Source of the DNA: a candidate division WWE3 bacterium | GTDB lineage: Bacteria; Patescibacteriota; WWE3; 2-01-FULL-39-13 | NCBI GenBank assembly: GCA_943354835.1 | Contig: CALRDH010000001.1 | Coordinates: forward strand, 191,298-255,297 | Direction of reading: 5' to 3' | DNA length: 64,000 nucleotides | Shown: positions 1 through 47,114 of the stretch, one piece after another | How the letters are laid out: the number at the start of each line of letters is the position of its first letter | Position numbering within the stretch: the first letter of the stretch is position 1 | Notes under the pieces: model-generated | The model's database searches: none | Told to the model about the DNA's origin: nothing | Seen by the model: the letters and a program-made list of their open reading frames with translations, nothing else | Made by a program: the position numbers and the translations under genes

Positions 1-392
1 GCAATTGCTTTTATGATATCTTTTGATGCTTTTTCTAAGCCTCTTCGTATAAACATTGGGTTTGCTCCGGCGGCAACATTTCTAAGTCCTGCGTCTACGA
101 GCGCTTGAGCCAATACTGTTGCTGTTGTTGTTCCGTCGCCTGCGGCGTCATTAGTTTTTGTTGCCGCCTCTAAAACTAGCTTTGCTCCCATATTTTCAAA
201 TTTATCTTTTAAATCAACTTCTTTTGCGACGGTTACTCCATCATGTGTAACATTTGGAGCCCCCCATTCTTTGCTAATTCCGACATTTCGTCCGAGTGGT
301 CCCATTGTTGCGCCAACTGCATTTGCAAGTGCGTCAACTCCGGCTTTTAGTTTATTTCGTGCTTCTTGGTTGTATATTATTTTTTTTGCCAT
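1..392 (-). CDS. groL: Chaperonin GroEL, N-terminal ~130 aa (gene continues past window start)
   Basis: Reverse-strand translation from ATG at 390-392 gives [73 protein letters not shown]..., which is a canonical GroEL N-terminus. It lies directly downstream of groES. Confidence 0.9.
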
Positions 393-409
393 TTTTATTT
401 TTTAACTAA

Positions 410-700
410 TTACTCGATAACTGCAAGTATGTCGCTATCGTTAACTATTTTATATTCGATTCCATCAACAGTTACATTTTCTCCTGCCCATTTGCCTTTT
501 ATTAAAACCGTTTGTCCTTTTTTAACACCTGGCTTAATTAATTGTCCCGATTCTGAAAATCTTCCTTCGCCTACTGCAATGACTTCTGCCATGTGTGTCT
601 CTTCTTGTGCTTCGTCTGGTAAAAAGATTCCACCAGAAGTTTTTTCTTTTGCTTCAAGTAACTTAAGTACTACTTTGTCTGAAAGTGGTTTTATGGTCAT
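410..700 (-). CDS. groS: Co-chaperonin GroES
   Basis: 96 aa protein MTIKPLSDKVVLKLLEAKEKTSGGIFLPDEAQEE...TVDGIEYKIV matches the GroES family and sits immediately upstream of groEL on the same strand. Confidence 0.9.
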   Translation of the reverse strand: MTIKPLSDKVVLKLLEAKEKTSGGIFLPDEAQEETHMAEVIAVGEGRFSESGQLIKPGVKKGQTVLIKGKWAGENVTVDGIEYKIVNDSDILAVIE

Positions 701-751
701 ATGATTTTTATTACTATTTAAACTAATTTACACGTTTCGGGATAAAATATA

Positions 752-1216
752 TCAGACTAAGCTCGAGAGTGTCAATGAAAAATATCTAAGCCACGGAGAT
801 GTGGATTTATAAAAATATAAATAAGTGAATATGTCTATTATAAAGTTAACCAGAAACCCTAGAAATAAGTAAAACATTAAACCTCCGAATAAATAAGAAA
901 GTGTTAAAAGAATAAAAAGAACCTCAAAATTATGAAATATGTAAAAGTGTGGATTATGGTTTTTGAATTCTTGTTTAAAAAATTGCAATGCTGATTTAAT
1001 ATTTTTTGGATGCTTGGAAAAGAAATAATAAAAAAGATGATCGATGTCGATTAGAATTGATCCAATGATAAGAAGTATGGTTTGTGCCGAATTAAAACCG
1101 AGTAGCAATGAAATAACAATCGGAATCAATAAATTCGCAGAAATTTCTGAGACGAGTTGTTTTTTTAAGTTCATAGATATAGATAAAGTGTTTAGTATGT
1201 GTCGAACACAGTACAA
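752..1216 (-). CDS. Hypothetical small polytopic membrane protein
   Basis: 154 aa ORF with several hydrophobic segments and no recognisable motif. Confidence 0.4.
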   Translation of the reverse strand: MYCVRHILNTLSISMNLKKQLVSEISANLLIPIVISLLLGFNSAQTILLIIGSILIDIDHLFYYFFSKHPKNIKSALQFFKQEFKNHNPHFYIFHNFEVLFILLTLSYLFGGLMFYLFLGFLVNFIIDIFTYLYFYKSTSPWLRYFSLTLSSLV

Positions 1217-1301
1217 AGTATAGCAAAATATATTAGAATTTCGTGATTCGTGTTAACCTTTCTGTAAAGTAATTAGTTAAATAAATGTTTTATAAATTTT
1301 T

Positions 1302-2045
1302 ATGGATGAAAATCAAGAACCAGTACGTAATCAGCAAGGTCTAGACGGAATCACTAGGCGTAGCTTTTTACGAGCAGCTGCAGTAACTGGAGTGACATCA
1401 ATTCTAGGCAGCTCGTCTGCTTCTCCTATACCAGTAGCGCAAGGTGAAGGAGTTTTTAGAGCACGCGCAGGTGGTGGTGAAACACTCTACAGCACACTTG
1501 AGATTTCGTCACTGCAAGTACCTTTAGGCAATGAAAATCCTGAAATTGAAGGTGGACAGGAGGTTACACTACCTGTAGTTGAGATATCGCTTGATGAACT
1601 TGGTATTACTGGTGTCATCAATCCGGTAGTTTATGGACAAATTACAACTAATAATGGCCAAGATGTAATTGCAGAATCAACATTTGGTACTCAAGCTATA
1701 TTTGAAGGCCTTCAACGAACTGAAGGTGATGGTGAATATCCTGGTCGATTAGTAATAGTTCTTTCGGGAAGTGAAAAAATATCAAGCACTAGTCCAATTG
1801 GGAGGCATTTACGGGCAATGAGAGGACTTAATTTTCTGTCTCTAGAAGAAGGGGTTGATTTGCCTGATGATGCAGTTGTTGAGATAGCCGTAGGGTCAGC
1901 TGGTGTTTCTAGTATAGTTAGTTCTGAATTAGGAATTCTATCTATGGCTTACACTGAGCCCCCATCAATCAAAAAAGTATTTCAATGTTTTGGAGCTGGG
2001 GGTGATATAAATAGAATAGAATCAGAAGCGGTTGGTGTTGGTTAA
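1302..2045 (+). CDS. Secreted hypothetical protein with twin-arginine (Tat-type) signal peptide
   Basis: N-terminus ...GITRRSFLRAAAVTGVTSILGSSSASP fits the S/T-R-R-x-F-L Tat consensus. GC content and Ala/Gly/Val-rich composition are visibly higher than in neighbouring genes. Confidence 0.5.
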   Translation: MDENQEPVRNQQGLDGITRRSFLRAAAVTGVTSILGSSSASPIPVAQGEGVFRARAGGGETLYSTLEISSLQVPLGNENPEIEGGQEVTLPVVEISLDELGITGVINPVVYGQITTNNGQDVIAESTFGTQAIFEGLQRTEGDGEYPGRLVIVLSGSEKISSTSPIGRHLRAMRGLNFLSLEEGVDLPDDAVVEIAVGSAGVSSIVSSELGILSMAYTEPPSIKKVFQCFGAGGDINRIESEAVGVG

Positions 2046-2085
2046 CCATGTTTTTCAAGTTCATGGCGTAGAATGAGAGTTTTTC

Positions 2086-2124
2086 GAGGCCTGGGCCGGA
2101 ATCGAACTGGGGGTGAGAGTTTTC
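2086..2124 (-). repeat. tRNA 3'-half-like fragment (degenerate copy of tRNA-Cys anticodon-stem/T-arm/acceptor end); possible att-type direct repeat
   Basis: Minus-strand sense AAAACTCTCACCCCCAGTTCGATTCCGGCCCAGGCCTC aligns with the tRNA-Cys 3' half AAAACTCTCACCGTCGGTTCGATTCCGACTCGGGCCTC at about 30 of 38 positions. The T-stem is not self-complementary, so it is not a functional tRNA. Confidence 0.4.
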
Positions 2125-2134
2125 ATTTCAATAA

Positions 2135-2536
2135 TTATGGTTCTAGCCTCTTTGAGTCAAGTTTATCAAAGTCTTTGTCAAATGAATAAATTTGTTTGCA
2201 TTCATAGTTTTTTTCATCATTTAAACAGTCTACAAAATCAACATTTAGTTTTTCATATTTAACAAGAGCCTTCAGTATTAAGTTTATTTCCTCGACGTGT
2301 AACTTTGGGGTGTTGATTATTGATTTGATTACATCTGCAATATCGTTTTTCTTGAATTTATATAGAGATCTCAGTGTAAATTCTATTTCCATAATTACGA
2401 AAATTGTTGTATAGAAGGTTCCTTTTTCAGTATTGGCAATCTCGGTCAGAAATCTTTTTGATTTTGTAGATTGTATCTTGTGATCATCAAGTATGGCTCT
2501 TAAAAAAACATTCGTATCAATAAGGTAGCAGGTCAT
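2135..2536 (-). CDS. vapC: PIN-domain toxin (VapC-like)
   Basis: 133 aa protein MTCYLIDTNVFLRAIL... has the PIN N-terminal acidic motif. It overlaps the upstream antitoxin gene by 4 nt. Confidence 0.75.
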   Translation of the reverse strand: MTCYLIDTNVFLRAILDDHKIQSTKSKRFLTEIANTEKGTFYTTIFVIMEIEFTLRSLYKFKKNDIADVIKSIINTPKLHVEEINLILKALVKYEKLNVDFVDCLNDEKNYECKQIYSFDKDFDKLDSKRLEP

Positions 2537-2820
2537 TCAATTCCTTCGTGTACTATCGTTTTTGCATTAATTTCCATGGCTTTTCCAACGTCATCTTTTT
2601 TTGTGATATATTTTTTATCCTTCTTGAATTTATAACCAAAAAAGTCTTTTACTGTTTTGGTAATCGGTTTTATAATGATTTTATCATCTAGCAATTCAAA
2701 CACTACAATATCATTTGGGGAAATGGTCAACTCATTTCTGAACGCTATTGGTATTGTTATTTGTCCTTTTGTAGTTACGGTCGAAGTATTTCTATTCATG
2801 ATGTTGGAATTGTAACACAA
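2533..2820 (-). CDS. vapB: AbrB/MazE/SpoVT-type antitoxin (VapB-like)
   Basis: The segment TVTTKGQITIPIAFRNELTISPNDIVVFEL is a typical swapped-hairpin AbrB-fold motif. The true start may be the internal MNRNTST (ATG at about 2799). Confidence 0.7.
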   Translation of the reverse strand: MCYNSNIMNRNTSTVTTKGQITIPIAFRNELTISPNDIVVFELLDDKIIIKPITKTVKDFFGYKFKKDKKYITKKDDVGKAMEINAKTIVHEGIE

Positions 2821-2833
2821 GTAAGATTTTTGA

Positions 2834-2848
2834 AAAGGTAATACCTTT
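2834..2848. promoter_or_regulatory. 15-bp palindrome AAAGGTA-A-TACCTTT just upstream of the vapB start; putative TA operator
   Basis: Perfect inverted repeat located between tRNA-Cys and the antitoxin start codon. Type II antitoxins usually autoregulate via such sites. Confidence 0.3.
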
Positions 2849-2873
2849 AACCGTGGAGGGTTTTAAATTAATT

Positions 2874-2947
2874 TGGAGGCCCGAGTCGGAATCGAACCGA
2901 CGGTGAGAGTTTTGCAGACTCCTGCCTTACCACTTGGCTACCGGGCC
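2874..2947 (-). tRNA. tRNA-Cys (anticodon GCA), CCA encoded
   Basis: Minus-strand sequence GGCCCGGTAGCCAAGTGGTAAGGCAGGAGTCTGCAAAACTCTCACCGTCGGTTCGATTCCGACTCGGGCCTCCA folds as a cloverleaf with anticodon loop CTGCAAA and discriminator U73, the Cys identity element. Confidence 0.85.
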
Positions 2948-3031
2948 ATTTGGGTATATTTTAACATAAATATTAGCTTCTATTTCGTTGCAAATATAGT
3001 CTTTTAGTGTTAGTTTTTAGATAGATTAAAT

Positions 3032-4204
3032 ATGAAAAATTTCGATCCCTATCAAATTATCACCATCGTACTTTCTATAGCAATTATCGCGTCTATTGGA
3101 GTTTTTATTTATAACCTATCGTTTGGTGGTTTTGGCAAAGCCGCTTTAAGTGTTGATACACAAAATGGCAAAGCAACAGTAATTATTAATGGAAAAGATA
3201 AAGGGGAAACACCTGTTTATACGGAAGAACTTAACGCAAAAAATATAAATGTCCAAGTAAATGGTGAAGGTGCTTCGTATAGCACAATTGTTAAACCTGC
3301 AGGAGGAACTTTGGCCGTCATAAAAAGAGAACTTGGTGCAGGTGGAGCTTTTAGCTCTGGCTTAAATATTTGGTTTACTAAAGGTTCTGGGGCAGATTCA
3401 ATAATTTCTGTTATATCCCCAGATAGTGAAGGCGTTTCTGTTATTGTTGATGGCGTTGAAATGGGAAAAACACCAGTTAAGTTTTCAACTGGGGATTTGT
3501 TAAAGCAAAATGCTGAAGGCAAATATGTTCTTACTTTTAAAAAAGATAGATATCAAGATCAAGAAGTAGAAATAAAAGTTAAGCCTGGATATGAATTAAA
3601 TATTAGAACGGACATGTTTTTGAAACCCTTATCATCTGAAATTGTTTCATTAAGTGGATTTGCAGAAGGAATAAGATTTGTCGGATTTAAAGGAATGACA
3701 GATGCGGCTTTTGCCGACCGAAAGGTCTGGGCAAAAGCCGCATCCTACTGGCTTTCTTCTCGTGGTGCAATCACATTTGATGGAAATAAGATTGAAAAAT
3801 TTAATTACTTTTTATCCGATGACGGAAAGATTTTCAATTCAGAAGCAAATGAAATTTCAGCCGAAGACCTAAAGGTTGAATCAGGAAATGTTGTAATGTA
3901 TTTAGGTTCTGGAAATGATTCAAATATTTCAGATCCCGCAAAAACTATTATCGAAAAGGCAACTGGGAAAATTTCTCCTGCAGCTCCAAGCGCAGATGGA
4001 AAAGGAAGAATTAAAATTAAACCAACTGGCATTGGATATTTAAAGGTTCGAAGTTCCGCTTCAACTGGAAGCACCCAAGTAGGAAAAGTTGATGAAGGCA
4101 CTATTTTCAATGTTATTGAAGTTAAAAATGGATGGTATAAAATTTCTTACGAAACTGGTAAAGATGGTTGGGTTAGTGGAACGTATGTTGAAAGCGTCGA
4201 TTAA
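3032..4204 (+). CDS. Membrane-anchored protein with PEGA-like repeats and C-terminal bacterial SH3 (SH3b) domain
   Basis: N-terminal TM helix; VxVDGxxxGxTP PEGA-like segments; C-terminal GYLKVRSSASTGSTQVGKVDEGTIFNVIEVKNGWYKISYETGKDGWVSGTYV resembles SH3_3. Confidence 0.5.
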   Translation: MKNFDPYQIITIVLSIAIIASIGVFIYNLSFGGFGKAALSVDTQNGKATVIINGKDKGETPVYTEELNAKNINVQVNGEGASYSTIVKPAGGTLAVIKRELGAGGAFSSGLNIWFTKGSGADSIISVISPDSEGVSVIVDGVEMGKTPVKFSTGDLLKQNAEGKYVLTFKKDRYQDQEVEIKVKPGYELNIRTDMFLKPLSSEIVSLSGFAEGIRFVGFKGMTDAAFADRKVWAKAASYWLSSRGAITFDGNKIEKFNYFLSDDGKIFNSEANEISAEDLKVESGNVVMYLGSGNDSNISDPAKTIIEKATGKISPAAPSADGKGRIKIKPTGIGYLKVRSSASTGSTQVGKVDEGTIFNVIEVKNGWYKISYETGKDGWVSGTYVESVD

Positions 4205-4219
4205 TTTTCGTACCTGCCT

Positions 4220-4798
4220 ATGTACGCTAAAACTTTAGTAAAACTTATAGACTACGCAATATTTCCAGCTGTTTTAATTGCTTTTGCAAAAATTGGATCA
4301 GCCATTTTATTTTCTCGGTATTTTGATTTTTCATATAAATCCGATGGTGTGCGAATTGTTTTTGAAAGTGCGGAAGCTTTCATTGCAGTTAATTCATATT
4401 CGTCTTTAGTGATGTTTTTTTCTGTTCTTGCTGGACTTGGATGGGTAATTGTGAAGGCTCATTTATTTCACGATACACATATAAGCCCATCTTTTTCAGC
4501 AAAGCTTTTTAGTATGAATTTGCAAGAACTCATTCACACAACTGAAACTATATATTCTCAGGCTTTCATTTGGCTTTCATTTGCTTGGTTAACTACTATA
4601 GTTTTCGGGGTTTATAGCTATTTTGGTTTATCTTATGTTTGGATATTTTTTGTATCATTAGCATTTTCGATTATAGCAACGACTCTTTTAATTATTGATA
4701 TTGAAAAAGAAATTAAATCCGACAAAGAAATGTTTGATATTCCTTTTGAGCCGACTAATCGAGTCGTAAAATTTTCCGAGGAAATATTCGTAGCATGA
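4220..4798 (+). CDS. Hypothetical polytopic membrane protein
   Basis: 192 aa hydrophobic ORF, same strand and translationally coupled (ATGA overlap) to the next ORF. Confidence 0.4.
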   Translation: MYAKTLVKLIDYAIFPAVLIAFAKIGSAILFSRYFDFSYKSDGVRIVFESAEAFIAVNSYSSLVMFFSVLAGLGWVIVKAHLFHDTHISPSFSAKLFSMNLQELIHTTETIYSQAFIWLSFAWLTTIVFGVYSYFGLSYVWIFFVSLAFSIIATTLLIIDIEKEIKSDKEMFDIPFEPTNRVVKFSEEIFVA

Positions 4799-5223
4799 AA
4801 ACAATTCTAAAAAATTCCTTATTAGTTTCTATAGTTGCAGGACTTTTAGTTCTTCCTTTGTCTGGATTCGGACTTTTTGATTACACAAAGAGTGAAATAT
4901 CTCCTGCTGCGACTGTTTTAGGTGTACAAACTGCCATCTCATCTCAGCCAAAGATAAAAGTAATTGATCAGATTAGTTTGAAATTATCTATTTCTGATGA
5001 GAATGTTCAAAAATTTTATAATGTTGTTCCAGAAGAATACCTTTTTCCCGAATTCACTTCTTATGCTATTGGACCAAAAGATTTAGTTGATGCCGGATAT
5101 GTTTTTGAAATCGTTGAGAATGGATTATCAAAAGACCTTATAGTTACCGCGCCTAAATCTTTATCTAAATTAAAATCGCAAATTATTGAATTACCAATAA
5201 TCATAATAAAAGCAGAAAATTAA
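4795..5223 (+). CDS. Hypothetical secreted protein
   Basis: 142 aa ORF with an N-terminal signal-like hydrophobic segment. Confidence 0.4.
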   Translation: MKTILKNSLLVSIVAGLLVLPLSGFGLFDYTKSEISPAATVLGVQTAISSQPKIKVIDQISLKLSISDENVQKFYNVVPEEYLFPEFTSYAIGPKDLVDAGYVFEIVENGLSKDLIVTAPKSLSKLKSQIIELPIIIIKAEN

Positions 5224-5246
5224 TACATGATATAATCGTTGGAACG

Positions 5247-6167
5247 ATGATGATTTATCATTTTGTAAGGGCACTAAGACCAAGACAGTGGATAAAAAAT
5301 GCGGTTGTGTTTGCACCTCTTGTATTTCATGGAGTTTTATTTAACCCGTCATATTTTTTCAAAGCATTTTTAGCATTCTTATATTTTTGTGGGGTCGCCT
5401 CTGCATCATATTTAATCAATGACATTTGGGATGCACAAAGAGACAGACTGCATCCAGTAAAAAAGAACCGGCCTATAGCTTCGGGAGATTTACCTGTCAA
5501 AGTAGCTTGGGTCGCTGTTTTTATTTTATTTACTATTTTATTACCAAGTGCTTTTTTTGTAGTAGGAAAATATTTTGGAATTGTTTTATTACTTTATGTG
5601 TTTTTACAGATTGCATATAATTTCAAATTAAAAAACGTAATAATCGTTGATGCATTAACAATTTCGATCGGCTTTATTTTAAGAGCCTTCGCAGGAGCTC
5701 TAGCGATTCCTTTATCAATTTCATCTTGGTTAATTCTTGCAATTACAGGGGTTTCCCTACTATTAGCTTTTGGAAAACGTCGTGCTGAAAGAACTTTGCT
5801 TGAAGCGCAAGGAATTTCAAAAGCCAGTACAAGGTCAATATTAAGACATTATCCAGATAATTTGCTTGATTCTATGATTTCCATGTCTGCATCATTTTCG
5901 ATCATTACATATTCCTTATTTGCTTTTCAGGTTTCGCCAGAAAACTCTGTAGTCAGGGACCTTAGTTCTTATATACCTTCTACATTGTTAAGTGCGAAAT
6001 TGTTAATGTTAACAATTCCTTTGGTTATATATGGAGTAGGTAGATATTTATATGTGATTTATGAAAAAAGAGAGGGAGAAAGTCCTGAACGCGTTTTGTT
6101 AGACGATAAGCCTCTTTTTTATACTGCAATTATTTGGATTATTTCTGTAATCCTTATCACAAATTAA
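5247..6167 (+). CDS. UbiA-family prenyltransferase resembling decaprenyl-phosphate phosphoribosyltransferase (DPPR synthase)
   Basis: RPRQWIKNAVVFAPLVF, NDIWDAQRDRLHPVKKNRPIASG and multiple TM helices are the hallmark motifs of the DPPR-synthase subgroup of UbiA (Rv3806c-like). Confidence 0.7.
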   Translation: MMIYHFVRALRPRQWIKNAVVFAPLVFHGVLFNPSYFFKAFLAFLYFCGVASASYLINDIWDAQRDRLHPVKKNRPIASGDLPVKVAWVAVFILFTILLPSAFFVVGKYFGIVLLLYVFLQIAYNFKLKNVIIVDALTISIGFILRAFAGALAIPLSISSWLILAITGVSLLLAFGKRRAERTLLEAQGISKASTRSILRHYPDNLLDSMISMSASFSIITYSLFAFQVSPENSVVRDLSSYIPSTLLSAKLLMLTIPLVIYGVGRYLYVIYEKREGESPERVLLDDKPLFYTAIIWIISVILITN

Positions 6168-30618: not shown

Positions 30619-30623
30619 CCCTT
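30611..30623. terminator. Recurring 13-nt hairpin motif AAGGGTAGCCCTT spanning the stop codons of two convergent genes
   Basis: The same motif (or its reverse complement) occurs at 18266, 32203 and 60000. Here the TAG stop of the + gene and TAA stop of the - gene both lie inside it. Confidence 0.3.
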
Positions 30624-31491
30624 ATAATTCCTCTAGCTCTCCGAGTCCAGATTCTTTTCTGTCTATATAGCGAAGGTAGTTTTCTGTTGTGGTTAGTCTT
30701 TTGTGTCCTGCGATTTTAGAGACGAGAAGAACGCTTGCTCCTCTTTTGAGGTGTTCTGCTACAAATGTGTGTCTTAAATCATTTACAGTGACGTCATCGA
30801 GCTGAATTTGTTTAAGATATCTTCCAATTGTCGCTCTTATGTTTCTAACTAGTAATGGATTTCCTGTTTTTGTTACGAATAAATGGTCGAGTTTTGAAGA
30901 AGGTCTTTCTTTTAGAAAGCCTTTTATTGCAGAAATTACTGCAGAATTAAGAGGAATTGTTCTGCCTGGGTTTTCTTTTGTTCCAGGTACTTCTAAAATT
31001 CCTTTTGCATCATGTTCTATTTTTATGTGATCGACTTTAATAAATGCTAATTCAGATATTCTAAGGCCTGTTTGAAGGAAGATTTCTATTATTGCACGTG
31101 TTCTTATATCGTCTTTTACTGTATCTCTTAACGCTCTGTACTCGATTTTAGTTAATATTCTTGGAGCATTTTGCTCAAGCCTTGGATGTTGAATAAATTG
31201 TGCAGGATCGTTTTCTATAATTCTTTCGTCAAGAAGAAATTTAAAAAATGTTTTGATTGCATTTATTTTTCTTGAGATAGTTTTTTTTGTGTAATTACTG
31301 TCCGATAGGTTTCTTAAGAAGTTCTCAATAATGGATTTACTAAGCTCGTGGGCACTTGATATATTTTGCCTTACTGCGAAGTCTGCTAATTGCTCAATAT
31401 CCTTTGCATAGGCCACAACAGTCGCTGTCGCTCTGCCTTTTGATATCAAACTCTGTACAAATTTTTCCCTCGCTGATGACAATAGTGTCAT
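30622..31491 (-). CDS. Tyrosine site-specific recombinase, XerC/XerD family
   Basis: 289 aa with catalytic R...HxxR...Y spacing (ARG, HDLRHTF, TENYLRY) and an N-terminal SAM-like core-binding domain. Confidence 0.8.
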   Translation of the reverse strand: MTLLSSAREKFVQSLISKGRATATVVAYAKDIEQLADFAVRQNISSAHELSKSIIENFLRNLSDSNYTKKTISRKINAIKTFFKFLLDERIIENDPAQFIQHPRLEQNAPRILTKIEYRALRDTVKDDIRTRAIIEIFLQTGLRISELAFIKVDHIKIEHDAKGILEVPGTKENPGRTIPLNSAVISAIKGFLKERPSSKLDHLFVTKTGNPLLVRNIRATIGRYLKQIQLDDVTVNDLRHTFVAEHLKRGASVLLVSKIAGHKRLTTTENYLRYIDRKESGLGELEEL

Positions 31492-31581: not shown

Positions 31582-31656
31582 TGGTTGCGGGGCCAGGATT
31601 TGCACCTGGGTCTCGAGATTATGAGCCTCGCGTGGTTGCTACTCCACTACCCCGCG
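31582..31656 (-). tRNA. tRNA-Met (anticodon CAT), initiator-like (C1xA72 mismatch)
   Basis: Minus-strand sequence CGCGGGGTAGTGGAGTAGCAACCACGCGAGGCTCATAATCTCGAGACCCAGGTGCAAATCCTGGCCCCGCAACCA has anticodon loop CTCATAA. The 5' C opposite A72 is the bacterial initiator hallmark, though the anticodon stem lacks three G-C pairs. Confidence 0.7.
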
Positions 31657-46541: not shown

Positions 46542-47114
46542 ATGCTTTGGAAAATCTTGATTAAATCTTTGTGGGAAAATTGGCCGGCCCTATTGGGTTT
46601 GGCTGCAATGGTATTACCTTTGGCTGCATGTCCACCAGAAGGTGCGACCTCAACCCCGATCCCGGCTGTAACGGCACAAGCGACATACGTCGCGCCGACT
46701 GCGGTGCCTTCGCAAGGAGAGATACTCGAAATCAATATGAGGATTAGCTCCGACGTCGAAGGAGGGAAATGCCTTTCAAGTGGAGACAAGTTTTACTTAA
46801 GTCTTCAAATGGAAGGAATCCCCGAAGATTGGGAAGGGCCTAGATCGGCTAACGTGATTTTTCAAGTCGGTCTTCTGGAAGATGGCCAAATTTGGGTTTT
46901 GAACGAAACCCAGGCCATTAAATTCCAGCTTGACACGGGCGAGACGGCCCAAGGGTCCATAAGGGTAGTTTTTTCACTACCCGACGGATCCGCTGTGAGA
47001 TTCGAAAATCCGGAGTTTCCATACTTCAGATATACGGGTCAAAACCAGGAGGGCAAGTTTTGTTTTGATTTGCCTTTTGGAACGTCTCCAGGAGCGCCTT
47101 TGCGAAAGGCCTAG
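46542..47114 (+). CDS. GC-rich secreted lipoprotein-like protein A (lipobox LAAC)
   Basis: MLWKILIKSLWENWPALLGLAAMVLPLAAC|PPEG...; markedly higher GC than surroundings; two Cys in the mature part. Confidence 0.5.
   Translation: MLWKILIKSLWENWPALLGLAAMVLPLAACPPEGATSTPIPAVTAQATYVAPTAVPSQGEILEINMRISSDVEGGKCLSSGDKFYLSLQMEGIPEDWEGPRSANVIFQVGLLEDGQIWVLNETQAIKFQLDTGETAQGSIRVVFSLPDGSAVRFENPEFPYFRYTGQNQEGKFCFDLPFGTSPGAPLRKA

Follow-up and report, generated by a model that had tools for sequence, protein, structure and literature searches.

A possible scar of site-specific integration at tRNA-Cys within a gene-turnover hotspot of WWE3 bacteria

Background

How did a small toxin-antitoxin (TA) pair come to lie between an intact tRNA gene and a decayed copy of the 3' half of that same gene? 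This question is raised by the segment 2082-2947 of a 64,000-nt stretch (hereafter the window) of contig CALRDH010000001.1, from a bacterium of candidate division WWE3 (Katanobacteria) in the candidate phyla radiation (CPR), where a tRNA-Cys gene, a vapBC operon and a tRNA-Cys fragment follow one another. A preliminary description of this DNA had read the arrangement as the attL/attR layout left by site-specific integration into a tRNA 3' end. Our analysis suggests, with roughly even confidence, that site-specific integration into tRNA-Cys left the segment behind as an eroded scar, situated within a hotspot of gene turnover between groES and tRNA-Cys. As it stands today the segment is not a mobile element; it is a VapBC pair with a tRNA gene on one side and a dead piece of tRNA on the other, a known kind of remnant that involves no new mechanism.

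Results and discussion

The fragment downstream of vapBC derives from tRNA-Cys

The intact gene at the head of the array is a tRNA-Cys(GCA) with encoded CCA at 2874..2947 on the minus strand, which was detected by ARAGORN, scores 62 bits against Rfam RF00005 and folds as a cloverleaf (minimum free energy -28.3 kcal/mol, z -2.0). The whole array is on the minus strand, so that tRNA-Cys stands at its high-coordinate end, and the decayed direct copy of tRNA-Cys positions 35-74 (+2 nt), at 2082..2123 (-), is a 3' piece that lies downstream of the gene and is co-oriented with it. By repeat search and alignment, 2082-2123 and 2872-2913 are identical at 35/42 nucleotides in direct orientation, and the fragment agrees with tRNA-Cys positions 35-74 themselves at 33/40, i.e. 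with seven differences; over the span for which the preliminary description had stated a repeat of about 30/38, the alignment gives 32/38. The best other ungapped match of the 42-mer in the window is 28/42, with the T arm of tRNA-Trp, and the TTCGATTCC core is common to most tRNAs, which could speak for a chance resemblance through the universally conserved T-loop. This explanation is refuted and its probability is negligible: the maximum reached in 200 shuffles was 26/42, and the match is 12/12 in the Cys-specific anticodon-stem and variable region, a match absent from the nine other tRNAs of the window. In local alignment, moreover, the fragment scores 52 with tRNA-Cys and at most 20 with the others among the ten tRNAs of the window; an origin from a different tRNA, named in the preliminary description as fatal to the integration, is thus not what is found, as only Cys matches. 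The tRNA-Phe gene, which neighbours tRNA-Cys in distant WWE3 genomes, was also tried as a source and rejected (local score 18-24, against 52-60 for Cys).

The extent of the copy follows the structure of the tRNA. The first identical bases are the final three of the anticodon loop (AAA; position 35); from there the match takes in the 3' strands of the anticodon and acceptor stems, with the variable region and the T arm between them, and it ends within 2 nt of the tRNA 3' end. Four of the seven differences are seen in the fragment alone and disrupt pairing in the T-stem or the acceptor stem, which fits what is expected of a displaced and unselected copy. The remaining three (48C, 62G, 64C) are the states of tRNA-Cys in other WWE3 lineages, the C48 state preceding the T48 that is common to the window and one relative, L009, and therefore the fragment is old or comes from another lineage rather than being a recent copy of the resident gene. 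For comparison, the tRNA-Cys genes of the six closest lineages are identical at positions 1-44, with every difference in the 3' part. No stable RNA fold was found for the fragment region on either strand (z -0.34 and -0.07), and on these values, together with the lack of any terminator-like site in 1150-3050, a structured RNA or a terminator between convergent genes was rejected as its identity. In the terms of an integrated element, tRNA-Cys would play the role of attL, as the regenerated target gene, while the fragment would play that of attR, as the displaced tDNA fragment.

The bounded interval holds an intact vapBC module

The repeat-bounded interval measures 790 bp from start to start and holds only vapB and vapC, in agreement with the segment of about 790 bp lacking an integrase that had been described before; the order of tRNA-Cys, 15-bp palindrome, AbrB-type antitoxin, PIN toxin and fragment was likewise borne out with correct coordinates, the orientation being the sole correction. 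The antitoxin gene vapB (2533..2799, -) encodes 88 aa with a DNA-binding domain of the AbrB/SpoVT/MazE type, matching Pfam PF04014 (MazE_antitoxin/AbrB; 1.2e-10, 41.6 bits) and TIGR01439 (AbrB; 6.4e-12, 45 bits), and it is called as 88 aa on independent contigs too. The toxin gene vapC (2135..2536, -) is intact and encodes a PIN-domain protein of 133 aa, which matches Pfam PF01850 (PIN) at 1.8e-7 and 32.2 bits, against a cut-off of 23.6 bits, and in which the conserved acidic residues D7, E50, D103, D120 and D122 are invariant in an alignment of 12 sequences. The antitoxin gene comes first, with vapB running 2799->2533 and vapC 2536->2135 so that the two overlap by 4 nt (ATGA), and the fragment begins 11 nt past the vapC stop.

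Upstream of vapB a promoter-like site can be seen on the minus strand, made up of TTTTCA (2836->2831), a spacer of 16 nt and TGtTACAAT (2814->2809); the vapB ATG lies 9 nt past this -10, so the mRNA would be nearly leaderless. The -35-like hexamer is overlapped by the perfect 7+1+7 palindrome AAAGGTAATACCTTT (AAAGGTA-A-TACCTTT) at 2834..2848, which has its sole exact copy of the window here, while the promoter scan itself is unenriched (5 sites, with 6.8 expected from shuffles). The AbrB-type antitoxin probably represses its own promoter via this 15-bp palindrome, a putative VapB(C) operator. A copy with one mismatch, AATGGTATTACCTTT, occurs at 46607-46621 inside the open reading frame (ORF) 46542-47114, and it is probably a chance match, as 15/100 shuffles give at least two matches.

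With its antitoxin-toxin order, 4-nt overlap, PIN acidic residues, promoter palindrome and sizes of 88 and 133 aa, the pair shares the features of type II VapBC modules and differs from them in nothing unusual. Judged from its sequence, it is an ordinary and apparently functional module of this type, with a predicted PIN RNase as toxin. For vapC we found 34 homologues, the closest outside the species being 56% identical (L008), on a contig of 964 bp; another, at 37%, sits in an unrelated bacterial context, and neither setting bears on mobility. No NCBIfam model matched vapC, and a sequence search of the PDB gave nothing significant.

The vapBC operon has long been at this site and is degraded in related genomes

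The orthologous locus (groEL-groES ... tRNA-Cys - PEGA/SH3 gene) was compared in about 14 other contigs, and the relatives are ranked here by the identity of PEGA/SH3 to that of the window; the closest named relative of the window's flanking genes is the metagenome-assembled genome PFSJ01000025. In the same strain (L005-L007, 100%) the arrangement is as in the window, which recurs in this way on independent contigs from three other samples. In L009 (88%) there are a membrane ORF, 70 bp, and then remnants of vapC and vapB that reach the tRNA end; in L010, of the same species as L009 (88%), only a pair of HTH_17 and PIN_3 genes; in L001, L011 and L012 (81%), the membrane ORF, a NUDIX gene, remnants of vapC and vapB, and the HTH_17+PIN_3 pair on the opposite strand; and L014 (79%) is empty, with 88 bp from groES to the tRNA. 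The more distant WWE3 genomes (46-58%) have unrelated genes, and tRNA-Phe beside tRNA-Cys.

Across these loci vapBC is intact in the window's lineage only; L001 and L009 have it as a pseudogene, and L010 and L014 lack it. The remnants of L001 and L009 share two deletions, corresponding to window positions ~2194/2199-2454/2456 in vapC and ~2668-2755 in vapB, to which L009 adds a further deletion up to the tRNA end; moreover the three versions of vapBC are 78-82% identical to each other, like the genome background. The shared deletions and the background-level divergence imply that vapBC has been beside tRNA-Cys since before these lineages split, which favours an old insertion with slow erosion over a recently mobilised cassette. 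Such a series, from an intact operon through a shared-deletion pseudogene to complete absence, is what would be expected of an integration scar and supports that reading. The fragment itself is confined to the window's strain among the loci compared, and Smith-Waterman searches judged against shuffles gave no decayed copies of it in L001, L009, L010 or window 1175-1302.

On the groES side, the variable interval starts to the base at the same junction, after GTGTCAATGAAAAAT (769..783), the end of a conserved groES-upstream stretch, in the window, in L009 (1080), in L010 (152) and in L014 (5825). The junction is identical with or without the small membrane ORF (752..1174, -; 140 aa), which makes up this far side of the interval in the window, L001 and L009 but is lacking from L010 and L014. 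Of this ORF, the final 10 codons fall in the conserved stretch, and L014 keeps them with an in-frame stop. L014 was considered as the ancestral empty site and set aside as unsafe, since the flank tree is near a trichotomy (80/80/82% identity) and the last 32 nt of the membrane ORF are retained.

The interval between groES and tRNA-Cys is a hotspot of gene turnover

At least five gene-content states are found between groES and tRNA-Cys in the clade with 79-100% identity, and more in the distant WWE3 genomes. For example, L009 and L010 have flanking proteins that are 100% identical and an interval of different content. A more instructive case is the HTH_17+PIN_3 cassette, whose HTH_17 is an excisionase-like DNA-binding domain: its copies in L001 (9089-9850) and L010 (205-966) are 97% identical over 762 nt, while the identity of the two genomes drops to 75-83% directly past the tRNA, and this difference shows a recent transfer of the cassette between species without an integrase. 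In both genomes it was inserted 13 nt downstream of tRNA-Cys, and its left end is discrete, GTGGA(C/G)TTCC, abutting different neighbours in the two. The window has the unoccupied version of this site, TGGAGG-G-TTTTAAATTAATT-TGGAGG(tRNA) at 2854-2879, where an AT-rich trailer of 13 nt after tRNA-Cys is followed by TGGAGG(G), which repeats the terminal TGGAGG of the tRNA (2854..2873, -; seen in the sequence and in the junction comparison). L010 has kept its own tRNA 3' half (T45, T48), so the part of the tRNA from the anticodon loop onwards was not exchanged in the transfer.

The two sides of the hotspot also differ in their relatedness. On the groES side (window 1-1180) the window is 85% identical in nucleotides to L001 and 81% to L009, whereas on the PEGA/SH3 side (window 2872-6167) it is 87-88% identical in amino acids to L009 and 80-81% to L001. 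Though the comparison is an informal one, such discordance suggests that a recombination breakpoint lies at the hotspot. Oliveira et al. 2017 (PMC5635113) described hotspots that have no mobile-element genes and that diversify by recombination at flanking core genes. In its sequence features, the interval from groES to tRNA-Cys matches this class of hotspots of horizontal gene transfer free of mobile genetic elements: it has conserved flanks (groESL on one side, tRNA-Cys/PEGA-SH3 on the other), many gene-content states and discordant sides; the close clade shows neither integrase nor transposase there; and one cassette is much more alike between species than the DNA flanking it. It differs from them in that it belongs to a CPR lineage with a very small genome, that the cargo is mostly tiny TA pairs, and that an att-like tRNA fragment survives in one allele, a sign of one or more past integrase events.

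The segment falls outside the island class

Islands integrated at tRNA genes with a displaced tDNA fragment are said to have been described by Reiter in 1989 and by Williams in 2002. The present segment shares with them an intact tRNA, a co-oriented downstream 3' fragment that runs from the anticodon loop to the 3' end, and a TA module among the cargo. It differs in having only 0.79 kb and no integrase, where the minimum of Islander is 2 kb and typical sizes are 13-40 kb, and in having repeats that are 17% diverged with no exact empty site known. In the Islander collection (PMC4383910) a 3' fragment occurs in 3760/3919 islands and an anticodon-centred attP in 2083/3919, and there are 125 tandem arrays at tRNA genes. 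Of the features that Islander looks for, the locus shows a full-length tRNA and a cognate fragment on the same replicon, the fragment being a terminal 3' one, downstream and in the same orientation, and the start of the repeat at the anticodon loop corresponds to the class A sublocation (PMC4383910). Islander further asks for a non-Xer, non-integron integrase within or overlapping the interval and for a length of 2-200 kb; with neither of these in place, the segment is filed as a remnant or islet and not as an island. As in tandem island arrays at one tRNA, there are several independent units downstream of the tRNA with the newest nearest, for example in L001 with the HTH_17+PIN_3 cassette between the tRNA and the old vapBC remnant; unlike in such arrays, the units here are without their own integrases and all but one without tRNA fragments.

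Among the 35 ORFs of 250-590 aa scanned in the window, the sole recombinase is an Xer-like tyrosine recombinase at 30622-31491 (-), 27 kb from the interval and directly downstream of a tRNA-Met (31582-31656). With the XerC and XerD models it reaches about 160 bits, short of their equivalog cut-offs, and the Xer-like class is excluded by island finders; apart from it, the ORFs scanned in the 64-kb window showed no candidate for the integrase specific to tRNA-Cys that the preliminary description had proposed to look for. An integron or CALIN cassette is not indicated either, as the only tyrosine recombinase has 62.8 bits against a cut-off of 265 bits for integron integrases, and no stable hairpin is present in the fragment region (z about 0), with no dedicated attC search run. 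A degenerate 40-mer of the tRNA-Cys 3' half, searched as a phage or provirus attP, had zero matches in IMG/VR.

A 10-mer recurs at the ends of the fragment

The direct repeat starts with the 10-mer AAAACTCTCA, which at 2904..2913 (-) within tRNA-Cys covers the 3' side of the anticodon loop and the 3' strand of the anticodon stem, and which is here a candidate crossover core. It is present in three copies in the window, with 0.38 expected. The third copy (2074..2083, -) stands head-to-tail right after the fragment, with unrelated DNA beyond it, so that this piece has the layout core - 3' half - core; it is locally significant, being reproduced in 9/2000 shuffles. By comparison, in about 250 kb of related loci outside the window's strain there is one copy per locus, inside tRNA-Cys. 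Three origins may be considered for the third copy: it may have been the microhomology from which a patch was templated, it may be what is left of a second fragment, or it may be an accessory site of the core type belonging to an older tandem element; such a triplet of 10-mers differs from the signature of a regular tandem island array.

Moreover, four contigs from other samples and species end in the anticodon loop of tRNA-Cys (L013, with 1-39; L015, with 1-37; L016 and L017, both with 1-34). Their ends, at tRNA-Cys positions 39, 37, 34 and 34, are where the direct repeat of the window begins. They may mark heterogeneity among strains, or an assembly effect of a tRNA sequence shared between species.

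The neighbouring Tat-signal ORF is a lineage-specific orphan in appearance

Convergent with vapC and outside the repeat-bounded segment lies an ORF of 247 aa with a twin-arginine (Tat) signal (1302..2045, +). The TAT_signal matches are borderline, with 18.9 bits for Pfam (cut-off 22.7) and 19.6 for TIGR01409 (cut-off 16.7). A search of 5.8 billion clustered proteins gave no convincing homologue, and one of 1.84 billion representatives gave two matches only, both weak and repeat-like. Like the fragment, the ORF is absent from all relatives, and it appears to be a true orphan gene specific to this lineage. Its GC content of 0.417 had drawn attention in the preliminary description as shifted; with a GC3 of 0.19, where host genes range over 0.18-0.24, the shift is an effect of amino-acid composition and not evidence of foreign origin.

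Weighing the origin of the segment

The origin that we favour, at about an even chance, is an integration followed by erosion. An element with a tyrosine integrase would have crossed over in the anticodon loop of tRNA-Cys, giving the tRNA a new 3' half and displacing the old one to the far end of the element, where it would now be seen as the fragment 2082-2123. The integrase and other cargo would have been deleted later, and the vapBC operon would have been retained in the window's lineage, plausibly since the loss of a stable toxin with a labile antitoxin is costly. The attL/attR layout of the preliminary description stands as far as the geometry, the Cys origin and the decay of the fragment are concerned; it finds no support in the matter of an integrase, an exact empty site or a recent arrival of vapBC. 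Of the two sources that it had offered, the deletion remnant of a larger island fits better than a TA module mobilised in trans, with neither proven.

Several results weigh against such an integration and have to be set beside it. There is no integrase in or beside the interval, and none beside tRNA-Cys in the about 14 related loci; Islander would reject the 790-bp interval twice over, for its lack of an integrase and for a length under 2 kb. The fragment is missing from L001 and L009 though both carry a vapBC remnant, and as it co-occurs with the lineage-specific Tat-signal ORF it might belong to the Tat side. In the anticodon loop only the AAA of CTGCAAA is shared, so the overlap region of 7 bp is not preserved. 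The third copy of the 10-mer is unpredicted by a simple attL/attR model. The HTH_17+PIN_3 cassette entered the flank without a long tRNA repeat, which means that cassette turnover here needs no attL/attR mechanism. Finally, no relative among the loci compared differs by exactly the 790-bp segment: the 'empty' tRNA-Cys site that was proposed as a check did not turn up in exact form, the sole empty locus, L014, being also without the membrane and Tat-signal ORFs.

Among the other explanations, the strongest is that the hotspot turned over without any integrase, by homologous recombination at the conserved flanks together with illegitimate or microhomology joins, and that the fragment is a by-product, e.g. 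a patch templated from the tRNA-Cys gene via the 10-bp microhomology TGAGAGTTTT; we regard it as unlikely, though as a serious contender. DNA uptake is plausible in CPR bacteria. Such turnover would account for the at least five gene-content states between identical junctions, for the 97% identity of the HTH_17+PIN_3 cassette between L001 and L010 where the identity past the tRNA is that much lower, for L009 and L010 with the same flanking proteins and different content, and for the discordant relatedness on the two sides. It also fits the fact that the 10-mer directly flanks the fragment, as a templated patch would explain why it does so on both sides of a 30-bp tRNA piece, and it fits the hotspots without mobile elements (PMC5635113). 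What it explains less well is the fragment itself: a random or templated duplication is not expected to begin in the anticodon loop and stop at the tRNA 3' end, the pre-existing 10-mer that it needs is found nowhere outside tRNA-Cys in the related DNA, and seven differences from the resident tRNA show that the fragment was not copied from it recently. An explanation of a different kind, which we consider improbable, takes the fragment as the element-borne tRNA 3' half of an older element that starts right after it and comprises the third 10-mer, the Tat-signal ORF and perhaps the membrane ORF, so that the locus would be a tandem array of tRNA, vapBC unit, fragment and older unit whose final attR was lost. 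The restriction of both fragment and Tat-signal ORF to the window's lineage would follow from it, as would the position of the third 10-mer at the start of the putative older body; the G62 of the fragment pairs the T-stem perfectly in the tRNA-Cys of the distant L026, so that a once functional 3' half is possible, and tandem arrays at tRNA genes are known from the 125 in Islander. Yet window 1175-1302 resembles the tRNA 3' half only at chance level, leaving no further tRNA fragment between the Tat-signal and membrane ORFs; the former has host-like GC3 and no convincing homologue, and nothing marks it as mobile cargo; and two independent losses, in L001 and in L009, would be needed.

Still less probable, in our judgement, is that the 790-bp vapBC unit is a live cassette lacking an integrase, mobilised in trans on the 10-bp core by a tyrosine recombinase, either the Xer-like one or that of a co-resident element. 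Three copies of the core exist, an Xer-like recombinase is present in the window, TA cassettes do enter the tRNA-Cys flank, and the contigs of four assemblies that end in the anticodon loop (at 34, 37 and 39) hint at heterogeneity in the populations. These points are offset by the divergence of the repeats, which at 17% and with the identity of the overlap region lost make a poor substrate for a tyrosine recombinase, and by the age of vapBC, which is decaying in place in the relatives. Moreover neither a tRNA nor a fragment accompanies the closest vapBC elsewhere, that of L008; the HTH_17+PIN_3 pair, a cassette that has moved, came into L010 with no change to the 3' half of the recipient tRNA; and a tRNA sequence shared between species also yields contig ends inside tRNAs. 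A bolder form of the same idea, and just as long a shot, is that AAAACTCTCA is an active recombination site in WWE3 populations, used for insertion or exchange in trans of TA cassettes without integrases, e.g. by the Xer-like recombinase. If this were true, the triple core and the assembly breaks in the anticodon loop would be the footprints of recombination at AAAACTCTCA, and this ultra-small CPR genome would have, at a tRNA gene, a minimal system for the exchange of cassettes.

Other observations at tRNA-Cys in distant WWE3 genomes

In one distant WWE3 genome (L019 2150-2740, L020 1800-2280), three tRNA-Cys-like pseudo-copies surround the real tRNA-Cys, two of them in a tandem period of 86 nt. 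They keep positions 17-36 and 54-74, the middle being replaced by the hairpin GTCGCC-TAC-GGCGAC, and an ORF of 82 aa of the GIY-YIG type lies between one pseudo-copy and the real gene. These copies could be the footprint of a homing endonuclease or a tRNA-derived repeat element. Separately, tRNA-Phe adjoins tRNA-Cys, in either order, in several distant WWE3 contigs (L018 4648-4839; L021 1228-1410; L026 6619-6885; L028 5426-5637), and it is missing from the locus in the clade with 79-100% identity and from the whole window.

Conclusions

Taken alone, the segment is a textbook remnant, in which an addiction module has survived between a tRNA gene and a dead piece of tRNA, and if the favoured origin is right it would serve as a marker that tRNA-targeted integration has occurred in WWE3/CPR bacteria, where mobile elements are poorly documented. 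The comparison moreover flags the interval from groES to tRNA-Cys as a hotspot in which small TA pairs come in, pass from one species to another and erode. The locus thus provides a natural series for the life cycle of a TA module, from intact through a pseudogene with shared deletions to gone, and it is useful for understanding how reduced genomes without obvious mobile-element machinery still gain genes.

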